Shown here: piece by piece, positions 30,164-33,279 of the stretch | How positions within the stretch are numbered: the first letter of the stretch is position 1 | Layout of the letters: every line of letters begins with the position of its first letter | Source of the DNA: a virus | Virus record (IMG/VR): IMGVR_UViG_3300014561_000002 | Length of the DNA: 37,141 nt | Strand: one strand, 5' to 3' | The notes under the pieces: model-generated | What the model saw: only the letters and a program-made list of their open reading frames with translations | Database searches by the model: none | Told to the model about the DNA's origin: nothing | Translations under genes and position numbers: made by a program

Positions 30164-31258
30164 ATGTCAAGCTCTTATCTCGGCCATGGTGCCAAGTATT
30201 GGGCCGACCGCTATTTTGAACAGCACACGCAAACCCGCCTGCCAGATGATCCCGCAGATCTCAGCTGGCGAGAAAAATATCTTGCATTGGAAAAAGAATG
30301 TGAGCATTATCAGGCAACGCTCTCCGAAATGCGCGTAGAAATCGAATACCTGCGCAGCCAACAGCCTACAAGCATTGTGGCCGACCCAGACCTTCAGCGG
30401 AAGGCTGAAAAATGGAAACTCGGTTATACACGTTTGGCAGCTGCGCTCAAAGAAAAAGAGAAACAGTATGATGCACTGTCTGCAGAAAAGCAGCGCCTTG
30501 AGTGCCATCTCCAAGAGCGGGAACTCTATCGTGGAAAAACAGCTGAACAATGGGCCGAATTGTATTTTTCTGAGCAGCGCAATTATCAAAAAGCCACTTC
30601 CGATCTGCAAGAGAGCGATTCTGAAATCCAAACGTTAAACAGCACTATTGCAAATTATCATAAATTCAATGAGGTTGATGGGCACGATGCCACCTACTGG
30701 CATCACAGATACACAACCTCACAGAAAGAGGCTTTTAAGGCCAACGTGTTTTCCGCTCTCGTTATCTTTTTTATTGCCTTTTCCTTCGGCGCCGTTTTTG
30801 GAAATCACGTCGGAGGGAGCGAAAATCTTTCTCCATCTTTTCAAACGGCAAGTTCTTCTATTTCATTATCACCCCAAGTTCAGCCTCAAACGAGTATTGT
30901 TTATAGCAGCTCAAATGAATCAAATACGATCCCGCTTACGGTTACTGCCAGCAAAAACAATAGCTACTACTTTTGTCTCTGCCAGGGTTCTAAAATCGTT
31001 AAAAGTTATTATGTGCGTGCCGGTGAAACGCTTACAACAGTTGTTCCTCCGGGAGGCTACTCTATTTATTTTGCGTATGGGTCCAGCACATCTACTTGGT
31101 TCGGTACACAAAATTTGTGGGGAACTCATACTTCTTTTTATCATTTCACCATCACATTCCCTTTTCGAGAGCCATGTGGACAAGTCTTTAATTTTGCTGT
31201 TTCAAATTCTTTTAGTGTGGAGAGTATAAGTAAAGATGAGTGGTCTGCTCTTAATTAA
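30164..31258 (+). CDS. Coiled-coil / single-pass membrane protein with beta-rich extracytoplasmic C-domain (364 aa); candidate superinfection-exclusion or abortive-infection factor
   Basis: AT-rich ORF. The N-terminal ~190 aa are heptad-rich and contain three W..(R/L)Y motifs. One TM helix, VFSALVIFFIAFSFGAVF (aa ~194-213, nt 30743..30802). A Ser-rich linker precedes a beta-rich C-terminal domain. It is co-oriented with the repressor. Confidence 0.75.
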   Translation: MSSSYLGHGAKYWADRYFEQHTQTRLPDDPADLSWREKYLALEKECEHYQATLSEMRVEIEYLRSQQPTSIVADPDLQRKAEKWKLGYTRLAAALKEKEKQYDALSAEKQRLECHLQERELYRGKTAEQWAELYFSEQRNYQKATSDLQESDSEIQTLNSTIANYHKFNEVDGHDATYWHHRYTTSQKEAFKANVFSALVIFFIAFSFGAVFGNHVGGSENLSPSFQTASSSISLSPQVQPQTSIVYSSSNESNTIPLTVTASKNNSYYFCLCQGSKIVKSYYVRAGETLTTVVPPGGYSIYFAYGSSTSTWFGTQNLWGTHTSFYHFTITFPFREPCGQVFNFAVSNSFSVESISKDEWSALN

Positions 31259-31275: not shown

Positions 31276-31298
31276 AAACTCACAAACCCCTCCAGCAG
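31276..31298 (+). repeat. Cassette-boundary repeat, copy A (truncated)
   Basis: AAACTCACAAACCCCTCCAGCAG is 21/23 identical to the first 23 nt of copy C. Confidence 0.7.
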
Positions 31299-31417
31299 GT
31301 TCCTATTAAGTCTGCTTATTCATGTCTTGTTTGTGAAGGATTTTTGAATTTTCATTGCTTGTCAAGCCCTAATTTTTAGTTTTTCTGTTGCGTTTGCAAC
31401 TTTTCACATTTTTTTCG

Positions 31418-31446
31418 TGTACAAACCTGCTCACCGAGCGTATAAT
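31418..31446 (+). promoter_or_regulatory. Putative promoter of the type III TA locus: TGTACA-17-TATAAT
   Basis: A perfect -10 at 31441..31446 and a 4/6 -35 at 31418..31423. Confidence 0.4.
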
Positions 31447-31547
31447 AGACTTGCAGGAACGTATTCCTGCCAAGACAATGAAAAGACTGCTGGTCTTTGC
31501 TTGTCCGCTGAAAGAGGGTAGCCCCTCCCTGCCATGAAAAAATGGGG

Positions 31548-31632
31548 AATTAAAAAAGCGGTGAGCTCTTACCGTGAGTAGAGAATGAAAAAAGCGGAGA
31601 ACCTCTGCCGTATAGTGAGGAATGAAAAAGGG
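31548..31632 (+). repeat. Imperfect tandem repeats (36 nt, 37 nt, partial third)
   Basis: AATTAAAAAAGCGGTGAGCTCTTACCGTGAGTAGAG / AATGAAAAAAGCGGAGAACCTCTGCCGTATAGTGAGG / AATGAAAAAGGG. The two full units are roughly 70-75% identical by eye. Confidence 0.7.
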
Positions 31633-31663
31633 TGCGGGACAGGTTACTGTTCCGCACCTTCTT
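31631..31663 (+). terminator. Hairpin terminator/attenuator between repeat RNA and toxN
   Basis: GGTGCGGGACAG-GTTA-CTGTTCCGCACC forms a 12-bp stem with one G-U pair, followed by TTCTT. This is the position the attenuating terminator occupies in known type III TA loci. Confidence 0.6.
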
Positions 31664-31681
31664 GGATTAAGGAGCTGAATT

Positions 31682-32209
31682 ATGGGGAAGTTTCAATTTT
31701 ACCACATCAACGAACACTATATCAGCTATTTACATAGTATTGACACCCATGTGCAATACAATAAGGGGCAGCGGCGTCCGTATGTTGGAATTGTACTCTC
31801 CATCAACGGCATTGATTATTATGTTCCCCTTGAATCCCCTAAGCCCAATCACGTTAACATCAAAGGCGGCGGTCCTGTTATGAAACTCGACGATGGTCGT
31901 CTTGGCCTAATGGGCTTCAACAATATGATTCCTGTTATTCCATCTTGCTTGATCAAATTTGATATTCAGAGTATCGAAAATGAGAATTATAAAATGCTCT
32001 TGTTGAATCAGTTAAATTATTGCAACAAGAATCGCGATCTTATTCTCCAGCGTGCAGAATCCACATACCGCAAAGCTCTCAGTCGTAAAATCCCGCTGTA
32101 TCAAAAGGTATGCTGCAATTTTGAAAAATTGGAACGTAAAAGCAAGAAATATGATCCAAATTACGTTCCATCTAAAAAGAAAATTCGTGCAACCGTACCT
32201 TCCAAATAA
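31682..32209 (+). CDS. toxN: ToxN/AbiQ-family type III toxin (endoribonuclease, 175 aa)
   Basis: MGKFQFYHINEHYISYLHSIDTHVQYNKGQRRPYVGIVLSINGIDYYVPLESPKPNH... and C-terminal ...CCNFEKLERKSKKY parallel ToxN/AbiQ (MKFYTISSKYIEYL...AFIGIVLEI.GHKYLAPLTSPK...CNFSLLEEKY), recalled from memory. AAGGAG lies 7 nt before the ATG. Confidence 0.8.
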   Translation: MGKFQFYHINEHYISYLHSIDTHVQYNKGQRRPYVGIVLSINGIDYYVPLESPKPNHVNIKGGGPVMKLDDGRLGLMGFNNMIPVIPSCLIKFDIQSIENENYKMLLLNQLNYCNKNRDLILQRAESTYRKALSRKIPLYQKVCCNFEKLERKSKKYDPNYVPSKKKIRATVPSK

Positions 32210-32219
32210 TTGTTCTTTT

Positions 32220-32253
32220 CAAGGAGCTCCCCGCCGGGTGCTCCTTGTTTTAT
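32220..32253 (+). terminator. Terminator after toxN
   Basis: CAAGGAGC (32220..32227) pairs with GCTCCTTG (32240..32247), followed by TTTTAT. Confidence 0.65.
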
Positions 32254-32292
32254 AAACGCACAACCCCCTCCAACTGTTTCCAGCCGGAGGGG
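32254..32292 (+). repeat. Cassette-boundary repeat, copy B (hairpin CCCCTCC...GGAGGGG)
   Basis: AAACGCACAACCCCCTCCAACTGTTTCCAGCCGGAGGGG is 36/39 identical to copy C. It sits between the convergent toxN and GNAT-like genes, so it could act as a bidirectional terminator. Confidence 0.8.
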
Positions 32293-32342: not shown

Positions 32343-32966
32343 TCAATCACCCAGATATTTCAAAAGCTGCACCAAATACTGGCCGGATTGCCGGTCTCGC
32401 TCATCTCGGTCAAGATCCCGTTTGCCGAAGATCACAAAGCCATTGTCTCCGTAAAAATTGAGCAGCGCGTCTTTGTCCTCGCATTCCAGATACACAAACT
32501 TGCCGCCCAGCACCGCCTGGATCGCGCGCACCTTATCAGTCGCCAGCTTCAACAGCACGTCGCCCGGAATCAGGTTGTCGTATCCGTTGGCAAAATTTTT
32601 GCCAAGCTGACCAATCAGAGGTGCTGAGATCATGTAATTGTCCGTCATAGAGCGTCGCGCATCCCTTGCCATTGCAAAACGATTCACTTTCTTTGCAACA
32701 TTTTTACTAATGTTCTTGCGTGGAATTTCGAGCACTTTGTTTGACAGTGTAAAATATCCCACCAGCACTGGTTTGTCTTTGTAAGATGTCACCACCAGCT
32801 GCGTCTGGGCAATTCCCTGCCTGGCAAATTCAATGGCCTTGCAATGCAGAAAAAACTCCACGTCCTTATTCAGCGGACAAGAAAACTCGGAAAGGATCTC
32901 CTTTGTTCGACCCTCTCCGAGTTCTTGGATCATATCTTTTAGGTTAACTAATCCGTATCCTGTCAT
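32343..32966 (-). CDS. GNAT-fold acetyltransferase-like protein, TacT/AtaT-type toxin candidate (207 aa)
   Basis: The pattern FSCPLNKDVEFFLHCKAIEFARQGIAQTQLVV...VLVGYFTLS...ISAPLIGQLGKNF...GDVLLKLATDKVRAIQAVLGGKFVYLECEDKDALLNFYGDNGF follows the layout of GNAT toxins (F.CG..L..FL...A, LGRLAV..., FY...GF). The acetyl-CoA motif is degenerate. Confidence 0.55.
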   Translation of the reverse strand: MTGYGLVNLKDMIQELGEGRTKEILSEFSCPLNKDVEFFLHCKAIEFARQGIAQTQLVVTSYKDKPVLVGYFTLSNKVLEIPRKNISKNVAKKVNRFAMARDARRSMTDNYMISAPLIGQLGKNFANGYDNLIPGDVLLKLATDKVRAIQAVLGGKFVYLECEDKDALLNFYGDNGFVIFGKRDLDRDERDRQSGQYLVQLLKYLGD

Positions 32967-33136
32967 TTCTTTCCAAACATCTCACGCAGCGCATCGCCCT
33001 TGATCTCATGGACAGTCTTATCCACAACGACATTTTTGCTGCTCTTTCCCTCTGCATTTTCCAATGCTCGTACAAAATTCCGTGCAAGCGGTTTTGAACG
33101 AATCACGACATTCTTTGTAATACTCTTTGTCGCCAT
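32963..33136 (-). CDS. Small protein (57 aa) translationally coupled to the GNAT-like gene; candidate antitoxin
   Basis: Too short for the ORF track. Peptide: MATKSITKNVVIRSKPLARNFVRALENAEGKSSKNVVVDKTVHEIKGDALREMFGKK. GAAGGAGG lies 8 nt before the ATG at 33136. Its stop overlaps the next ATG (ATGA). Confidence 0.55.
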   Translation of the reverse strand: MATKSITKNVVIRSKPLARNFVRALENAEGKSSKNVVVDKTVHEIKGDALREMFGKK

Positions 33137-33186
33137 CAAAAAGACCTCCTTCTTTTTGAAAGTGCAAAGCTATACCTTGCATCTTC

Positions 33187-33240: not shown

Positions 33241-33279
33241 AAACGCACAAACCCCTCCAGCCGTTTCCAGCCGGAGGGG
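33241..33279 (+). repeat. Cassette-boundary repeat, copy C
   Basis: AAACGCACAAACCCCTCCAGCCGTTTCCAGCCGGAGGGG, a direct repeat of copy B lying 987 bp away. Confidence 0.8.

Follow-up and report, generated by a model that had tools for sequence, protein, structure and literature searches.

A probable phage-borne ToxIN cassette with three unlike, position-conserved pseudoknots predicted in its antitoxin RNA

Toxin-antitoxin (TA) systems of type III are usually sought and described by means of antitoxin RNAs that consist of near-identical repeat arrays. In ToxIN_Pa from P. atrosepticum and in ToxIN from E. coli, for which abortive-infection and TA function have been demonstrated, a promoter, the repeats, a terminator and the toxin gene follow one another. 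Type III antitoxin arrays comprise 1.9-5.6 copies of 31-62 nt, and the antitoxin unit is described as an H-type pseudoknot with two nested helices of 3-4 bp, a first loop of 3-4 nt, a second of 1-2 nt and a third of variable length (PMC3401426). According to the same paper, the toxin cuts the repeat RNA at an A-rich site to antitoxins of unit length, which bind it directly and neutralize it within a closed heteromeric complex. A survey from 2025 reported that toxIN and cptIN repeats are nearly identical (PMC12283969); Blower et al. (2012) relaxed the settings of Tandem Repeats Finder (TRF) for "greater variability between antitoxin repeat sequences" (PMC3401426), and functional non-identical type III repeats have been shown only for TenpIN (PMC13682666). 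The subject of this work is a putative toxIN locus in the IMG/VR virus record IMGVR_UViG_3300014561_000002, a stretch of 37,141 nt that is referred to as the window. An original prediction made from the sequence alone had placed a ToxN/AbiQ toxin gene behind a "non-canonical, degenerate" antitoxin RNA at positions 31418-32253. The analysis covered the family and fold of the toxin, the architecture and covariation of the RNA, the conservation of its units by position, purifying selection and the phage context, and we consider it likely that the locus is a functional, conserved and phage-borne ToxIN-family (type III) cassette with a three-pseudoknot RNA.

The toxin and the architecture of its RNA

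The toxN gene (31682..32209, ATG start; plus strand, as are all features unless stated otherwise) encodes a ToxN/AbiQ-family endoribonuclease toxin of 175 amino acids. This family had been recognized in the original prediction, and a hidden Markov model search with Pfam PF13958 (ToxN_toxin) bears it out with an E value of 5.2e-47 and 160 bits (cut-off 25) over profile positions 2-159 of 159. The AbiQ profile of PADLOC is in agreement (E 1.3e-44), as is a sequence search of the PDB, which returned ToxN/AbiQ chains only (E 1e-14 to 2e-22), with 4ATO, the ToxN protein from B. thuringiensis, as the top match (E 1.8e-22). NCBIfam yielded no match for the toxN product or for the neighboring genes. 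An AlphaFold2 model calculated with 21 homologues (predicted local distance difference test, pLDDT, 79; predicted template modeling score, pTM, 0.75) had four significant Foldseek matches in the PDB, 4ATO, 2XD0, 7D8O and 4GLK, all of which are ToxN/AbiQ proteins, while the next match had an E value of 2. As judged from profile matches and modeled fold, the open reading frame (ORF) is a full-length, genuine member of the ToxN/AbiQ family. The active site of ToxN_Pa is made up of Tyr29, Lys33, Thr52, Ser53 and Lys55 (PMC5086642). In a phmmer alignment to 2XD0, Ser53 and Lys55 correspond to S52 and K54 of the window protein and Lys33 corresponds to R32, and these three residues are invariant among the 21 homologues. 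The codon substitution pattern indicates that toxN is under purifying selection, with a ratio of nonsynonymous to synonymous substitution rates (dN/dS) of ~0.04 between the window and the homologous locus L030; for more distant homologues dS is saturated and dN amounts to 0.1-0.45.

For the RNA, homologous loci were drawn from genomes, viral contigs and metagenomes, and 27 with distinct upstream sequence were kept, the ToxN proteins of which are 50-99% identical to that of the window; as these loci are related by descent, counts over them are not counts of independent events. Conservation of the repeats across homologues had been put forward as a check on the original prediction, and all 27 loci turned out to share one architecture: a -10 box, a first hairpin, a second and longer hairpin, three pseudoknots termed PK0, PK1 and PK2, a strong hairpin, a ribosome-binding site and toxN, with an RNA length of ~210 nt that recurs throughout. 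The type III layout as such had been predicted correctly, promoter-like site, repeats, hairpin and ribosome-binding site being found at or within a few bases of the places originally assigned to them.

In the window, TRF reports a tandem array at 31546..31629 with a period of 36, 2.3 copies and 78% matches. It covers the two full repeat units that had been claimed before, PK1 and PK2, although their identity in a global alignment is 81% and thus slightly higher than the 70-75% originally given. A third pseudoknot, PK0, had gone unrecognized; when it is counted, the array holds three units of 41, 36 and 37 nt. PK0 (31510..31550) is predicted to consist of helix 1 (31515-31518/31527-31530), helix 2 (31522-31525/31544-31547) and a loop 3 of 13 nt. 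Its helices are paired in 98% (helix 1) and 100% (helix 2) of cases over the 27 loci, and the closing pair of helix 1 varies among loci between G-C, U-A, A-U and C-G. PK1 (31558..31586) combines a helix 1 formed by 31559-31563 and 31570-31574 with a helix 2 formed by CUCU (31566-31569) and AGAG (31580-31583), which is 98% paired and has compensatory changes in all four of its pairs. In PK2 (31594..31623), helix 1 (31595-31599/31606-31610) and helix 2 (CCUC, 31602-31605, with GAGG, 31617-31620) are 92% and 94% paired, respectively, again with compensatory changes. The loop 3 of PK0 follows the "Group II" ToxI pattern, while the loops of PK1 and PK2 with 5 and 6 nt follow the "Group I" pattern (PMC3401426).

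These pair counts were derived from an alignment that reaches from PK0 to the start codon in the 27 loci (alignment A2) and into which the three H-type pseudoknots were written by hand. All six helices are 85-100% paired. Standard pairs occupy 94.2% of 701 cells, a value that drops to 42-55% when the 3' partners are slid by one to three columns, and changes on both sides are seen for 15 of the 26 pairs, compared with 4-6 in the slid controls. On four of five measures none of 500 shuffles matched the observed value; on the fifth, further standard pair types, 37 of 500 did. The three units are, on this covariation evidence, H-type pseudoknots.

The units are joined by A tracts at 31552..31557 (A6, between PK0 and PK1, invariant in the 27 loci and a predicted ToxN cleavage site), at 31588..31593 (A6, between PK1 and PK2, with 31589-31593 invariant and A at 31588 in 26 of 27 loci) and at 31625..31629 (A5, between PK2 and the hairpin, with four invariant A), the last of which had originally been taken for the start of a partial third unit. 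Apart from one position in one locus, the three junction tracts are invariant. ToxN_Bt cleaves at A/AAAA (PMC5086642), and cleavage of the window's RNA at the junction tracts would fit this specificity. Two further A-punctuated fragments upstream (31476-31484 and 31533-31541) had been put forward as additional repeat remnants. They exist as sequence but are no such remnants: the one is the 5' strand of the second leader hairpin and the other lies in loop 3 of PK0. Since the A runs that they contain are not conserved in the other loci, they do not appear to be cleavage punctuation either.

Around this core, the remaining elements of the transcript could be placed as follows. A putative, sigma-70-like promoter site (TGTACA-17-TATAAT, 31418..31446) matches the consensus at 10 of 12 positions; the same consensus scan found five promoter-like sites in the region, compared with 2.0 +/- 1.0 in shuffled sequence, and a TATAAT-like -10 box is present at the equivalent place in 27/27 loci. 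The ~230 nt between the promoter-like site and the ribosome-binding site contain no ORF of note. Short ORFs of 34-50 amino acids that overlap the RNA region were set aside as mechanical, as base pairing is conserved there and leader length and sequence vary. Leader hairpin 1 (31453..31470; 7 bp, GCAGGAA/UUCCUGC), obtained from the minimum free energy (MFE) fold, lies 2-3 nt from the likely 5' end of the RNA, and a hairpin of 6-10 bp with unlike sequence occupies its place in every locus. It is followed in the MFE fold by the long, imperfect leader hairpin 2 (31474..31505). Leader lengths are too variable for pair counting and alignment by column with MAFFT fails, so that the leaders were folded one by one; all of them are predicted to contain a second, longer hairpin, again of unlike sequence, with leader z-scores of -2.2 to -6.6. 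As a separate observation, the stretch 31496-31517, at the junction of leader and PK0, forms a 22-nt inverted repeat with 32864-32885 (86% complementary). As the gene at the latter place lies on the minus strand, its mRNA would carry a sense-similar copy (19/22) of the junction, which may be due to chance.

Between the array and toxN, a 12-bp terminator hairpin had been predicted at 31631..31658; it is contained in a hairpin of 14 bp (31629..31660; -25.7 kcal/mol, z = -6.5) that precedes a weak U tract, UUCUUGGAUU, and is probably a leaky terminator, i.e. an attenuator. In 27/27 loci the sequence from the last A tract to the start codon includes a hairpin and folds with -14 to -29 kcal/mol. 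The ribosome-binding site AAGGAG (31669..31674) is located 7 nt 5' of the ATG. Downstream of the gene, a hairpin with an 8-bp stem and a 12-nt loop that is followed by UUUUAU (32220..32253) is read from the sequence as the probable toxN terminator. It was not called in the terminator scan because the latter has a loop limit of 8 nt, and it also shows as a hairpin within a chance-level Rfam match.

Unlike repeats conserved by position

The differences between the units recur from locus to locus. PK0 starts with AAAGAGG, while PK1 and PK2 start with AAAAAAGCGG across the 27 loci. Within a locus PK1 and PK2 share 75% identity on average, compared with 80% for PK1 with PK1 and 82% for PK2 with PK2 across loci; compared with the units of other loci, PK1 is nearer to PK1 than to PK2 in 24 of 27 loci, and PK2 is nearer to its own kind in 26 of 27. 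The 5' strand of helix 2 is CCCC in PK0 (21/27), CUCU in PK1 (21/27) and CCCC or CCUC in PK2 (23/27). Adjacent units have a helix 2 in common in none of the 27 loci, neither PK0 with PK1 nor PK1 with PK2; in 15 of 27, PK0 and PK2 have the same one.

When the window is compared with four relatives (L001, L030, L003 and L004), the three knots are 93-98% identical, the leader 78-89% and toxN 71-80%, with only 56-63% at third codon positions and 68-87% identity between the ToxN proteins. The high identity of the knots in comparison with the third positions of toxN therefore points to a stronger constraint at the nucleotide level; as far as these alignments tell, the constraint on the knots exceeds that on the leader and, by a wide margin, that on the synonymous sites of toxN. 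High knot identity beside diverged ToxN proteins may reflect very strong selection on the RNA or separate recombination of RNA module and toxin gene, and it raises the question of one array serving toxins that differ at 30% of their residues.

Unlike units are not restricted to the relatives of the window. The ToxI RNA from plasmid pAW63 of B. thuringiensis is reported by TRF as 3.1 copies of 34 nt with 75% matches and consists of three unlike units that are conserved by position in plasmids from B. mycoides and B. cytotoxicus, including a compensatory change from A-U to G-C in unit 0. Its first unit has a helix 1 of the AGAG type, and its helix 2 alternates CCU, CUC, CCU. Among 34 other ToxN-family loci analyzed with TRF, arrays with at least 92% matches were found in nine, arrays with 72-90% in twelve and none in thirteen; in four of the TRF-negative loci (L162, L169, L174 and L175) three unlike units are visible by eye. 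Near-identical arrays are represented by P. atrosepticum (98%), Fusobacterium (98%) and Lactococcus (94%). The pAW63 RNA and the twelve loci with 72-90% matches speak against the label "non-canonical, degenerate" and against its premise that the repeats of known systems are near-identical: as judged from these arrays, unlike repeats are not unusual within the ToxIN family, and "non-canonical" was an overstatement. Repeat finders under-call ToxIN loci with unlike units; in 13 of the 34 loci TRF reported no array.

Two observations from the survey stand beside these. In a S. epidermidis plasmid (L197) and a C. difficile phage-plasmid (L199) three units occur in the order A-B-A, the first and third being nearly the same and the middle one different, which parallels the alternation of helix 2 in the window clade and in pAW63. 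Locus L162, with a ToxN protein that is 43-46% identical, has an array of PK0-like units only (AAGAGG..CCCCU.AGCCU..AGGG), the middle one with a loop 3 of ~24 nt. The PK0 type appears from this array to exist as an antitoxin unit in its own right.

Proposed mechanism and alternatives

For the transcription, processing, stoichiometry, neutralization by each unit and trigger of the window's toxIN we infer the following. A single promoter would drive the synthesis of an RNA of ~210 nt that carries two leader hairpins, PK0, PK1 and PK2 joined by A5-6 tracts, and the strong hairpin. Most transcripts would end at the hairpin 31629..31660 and some would read into toxN, such that the RNA would be in excess over the toxin. 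ToxN, as an A-tract-specific endoribonuclease, would cut the precursor within the A tracts and would stay on the released pseudoknots via their conserved single-stranded tails, giving rise to a closed, inactive ring by analogy to the 3:3 triangle of ToxIN_Bt and ToxIN_Pa. PK0 probably keeps the leader attached because an A5 tract is lacking on its 5' side. Upon a stop of transcription, be it by infection with another phage or by loss of the prophage, the RNA would decay and free ToxN would cleave A-rich RNAs and arrest the cell. Exclusion of other phages by toxIN, as originally suggested, is plausible.

A number of findings do not sit easily with a functional ToxIN cassette of this kind. The best match of the curated Rfam model for ToxI (RF02519) lies at 31555-31589 and reaches 15.4 bits with an E value of 9.1, compared with a gathering score of 50. 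The RNA is visibly similar to the units of ToxI_Bt and would work like ToxI, yet it is missed by this model. The U tract 3' of the hairpin at 31629..31660 contains fewer than five U, and the terminator scan made no call there. In the alignment to 2XD0, Thr52 of the ToxN_Pa active site is replaced by an invariant Glu (E51) and Tyr29 falls into a gap, and the catalytic details of the window ToxN may therefore differ from those of ToxN_Pa. PK0 has no A5-6 tract on its 5' side, and its helix 1 is different. The assignment of PK0 as third antitoxin unit is the least certain step of the proposal, the alternative being a cis-acting domain. A permissive Rfam scan gave six matches far below gathering score (among them Phage_DGR with 18 bits, DGCR5, the 3' untranslated region of plastid psbA and ToxI with 15 bits); the hint to ToxI apart, these were dismissed as chance matches.

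If PK0 is such a domain, only PK1 and PK2 are antitoxin units, and PK0 together with the leader hairpins forms a 5' region that does not neutralize ToxN and could protect the 5' end from exonucleases, guide co-transcriptional folding or serve as a handle for RNA turnover. We regard this as a real but minority possibility. Helix 1 of PK0 is AGGG/CCCU where PK1 and PK2 have CGGU/ACCG, its 5' tail is AAAG rather than A6G, its loop 3 has 13 instead of 5-6 nt, and its identity to PK1 and PK2 of its own locus is no more than 58-64%; the absence of a leader from the B. thuringiensis reference locus would also be in line with an add-on. On the other hand, PK0 shares its pseudoknot topology and its 3' tail (GGGGAAU, then A6) with the other two units, and an invariant junction tract forms its end. 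The PK0 of L154, the most distant member (50-52% ToxN identity), has an ordinary helix 1 of the GCGG type and a short loop, an AGAG-type helix 1 is also present in the first unit of ToxI_Bt, and the array of L162 is composed of PK0-like units throughout. It is improbable that the RNA is left unprocessed or is processed only in part, with the three tethered pseudoknots of one transcript wrapped around three ToxN proteins and the A tracts acting as uncut binding tails. Exactly three units in 27/27 loci equal the three RNA positions of the ToxIN triangle, and the ToxI_Pa precursor also neutralizes ToxN (PMC5086642), but every solved ToxIN complex contains RNA that has been cut to unit length and bears a 2',3'-cyclic phosphate (PMC5086642), the A5-6 tracts, which are invariant, agree with the motif at which the closest solved homologue cleaves, and the likely catalytic Ser and Lys are invariant in the window's ToxN clade.

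The decaying locus that had been offered as one of three options in the original prediction, with repeats drifting after a loss of function, is hardly credible. The repeats are indeed only ~78-81% identical and the Rfam ToxI score stays below threshold, and one relative (L156:1211-1728) with PK0 and a single further unit, i.e. two units only, and a truncated toxN whose ToxN match ends at residue 76 looks truly decayed. The window forms a contrast to it: its ORF is intact and under purifying selection with the low dN/dS given above, near-identical copies are present in at least 48 contigs from human-gut metagenomes and in 16 viral contigs of IMG/VR, the 90% sequence cluster of the toxN product comprises 753 sequences, and the RNA shows both conservation and covariation over 27 loci, the differences between units being conserved by position and compensatory and the knots being far more conserved than the synonymous sites of toxN. 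Among the three options, a divergent antitoxin with the potential for heteromeric assemblies fits best.

Within a cassette that is functional and processed, the three unlike units might constitute an ordered set, one transcript providing one PK0, one PK1 and one PK2 for each closed 3:3 ToxN-RNA triangle. This extension is tentative, and we would rather doubt than endorse it. If it held true, the A-B-A alternation of helix 2 would allow each knot to form in cis and not pair wrongly with the adjacent one and would keep the array from recombinational expansion or collapse. The leader fused to PK0 would stick out of the complex and determine how long the RNA lasts, and with it the threshold at which the toxin is triggered. 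The three-position logic, which is also that of ToxI_Bt, would then be an old and general design of ToxIN in Firmicutes that is hidden by the textbook picture of identical repeats.

Phage context and comparison with known systems

Genes for a portal protein, the large terminase and an internal virion protein are present in the window together with those for a replication initiator, a cI-like repressor and a large serine integrase. By this gene content the window is assigned to a temperate phage, as had been proposed originally. The G+C content is 52-69% over 1-29 kb (59-69% but for one stretch of 52%) and 41-48% at 29-33 kb, the site of toxIN. The low-GC toxIN locus is carried as cargo by a temperate phage of gut Clostridia, in which it lies between the genes for the repressor and the serine integrase, and represents a clear case of a temperate phage with a defense or addiction module in a cargo slot between repressor and integrase. 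Homologues adjoin tyrosine or serine integrases, helix-turn-helix repressors and KilA-N/Bro/ANT genes.

Some further features of this region were recorded. A 39-nt element (AAACGCACAAMCCCCTCCA...GGAGGGG) with an internal hairpin occurs at 31276-31314, 32254-32292 and 33241-33279, ~980 bp apart, and brackets both toxIN and the cassette that follows; copy 2 is 92% identical to copy 3 and 62% identical to copy 1. The element may mark the boundaries at which cargo is swapped in and out of the slot. Directly 3' of toxIN in the same low-GC island, on the minus strand (32343-33139), an ORF of 58 amino acids (phrog_3291, unknown function) overlaps the start of an ORF of 207 amino acids that matches phrog_1758, "acetyltransferase", with an E value of 8.5e-48 and has no match in Pfam, NCBIfam or PADLOC; the layout resembles that of a type II TA system with a toxin of the GCN5-related N-acetyltransferase (GNAT) type. 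A low-GC ORF of 364 amino acids right after the cI-like repressor (30164-31258, plus strand) has no match in Pfam, PHROGs, NCBIfam or PADLOC.

Among the known systems, ToxIN_Bt (pAW63, PDB 4ATO, with RF02519 as ToxI) is the best match to the window toxin in sequence and fold, albeit at only 33-34% identity. Its antitoxin resembles that of the window: it comprises about three units, each of 34-37 nt, whose pseudoknot topology is the same and whose sequence is similar (GGUG..CUCU.ACCG..GAG), and it has A-rich junctions that match A/AAAA cleavage. The ToxIN_Bt units are likewise unlike each other (75% matches by TRF) and conserved by position across Bacillus, with an AGAG-type helix 1 in the first unit and an A-B-A order of helix 2. 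In contrast to the window, ToxIN_Bt is plasmid-borne rather than phage-borne, has no two-hairpin leader, and its first unit follows right after the promoter and is devoid of a long loop 3; furthermore, the window RNA stays below the RF02519 threshold. It is the two-hairpin leader and the long-loop first unit that, by sequence comparison, set the window clade apart from ToxIN_Bt.

ToxIN_Pa (pECA1039; 2XD0, 2XDB, 2XDD) and E. coli ToxIN (7D8O) share toxin family and fold with the window as well as the operon logic outlined at the outset. ToxIN_Pa differs in its 5.6 repeats of 36 nt with 98% identity, in cleavage at AA/AU, in its location on a proteobacterial plasmid and in the absence of a leader. 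AbiQ/antiQ from Lactococcus lactis (4GLK), an anti-phage system of Firmicutes that belongs to the same family, has about three repeats of 35-37 nt and A/AAA cleavage, but its repeats are 94% identical and it is plasmid-borne and lacks leader hairpins. Compared with these systems, the window and its 26 relatives represent a widespread clade of ToxIN in gut phages, the antitoxin of which appears to consist of three different, position-conserved pseudoknots behind a structured leader. In this respect it bears a resemblance to TenpIN, in which two non-identical tenpI repeats each fold as a pseudoknot, each neutralize the toxin and are both present in the purified complex (PLoS Pathog 2026, PMC13682666). 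TenpIN has a toxin of another family (~13% identity to ToxN) and only two units in a 2:2 heterotetramer, as opposed to the presumed 3:3 ring of the window's ToxIN. The architecture of the window clade poses a concrete question that can be put to the test, namely how RNAs of different kinds come together with a toxin of one kind; for TenpIN, experiments have just begun to address it (PMC13682666).

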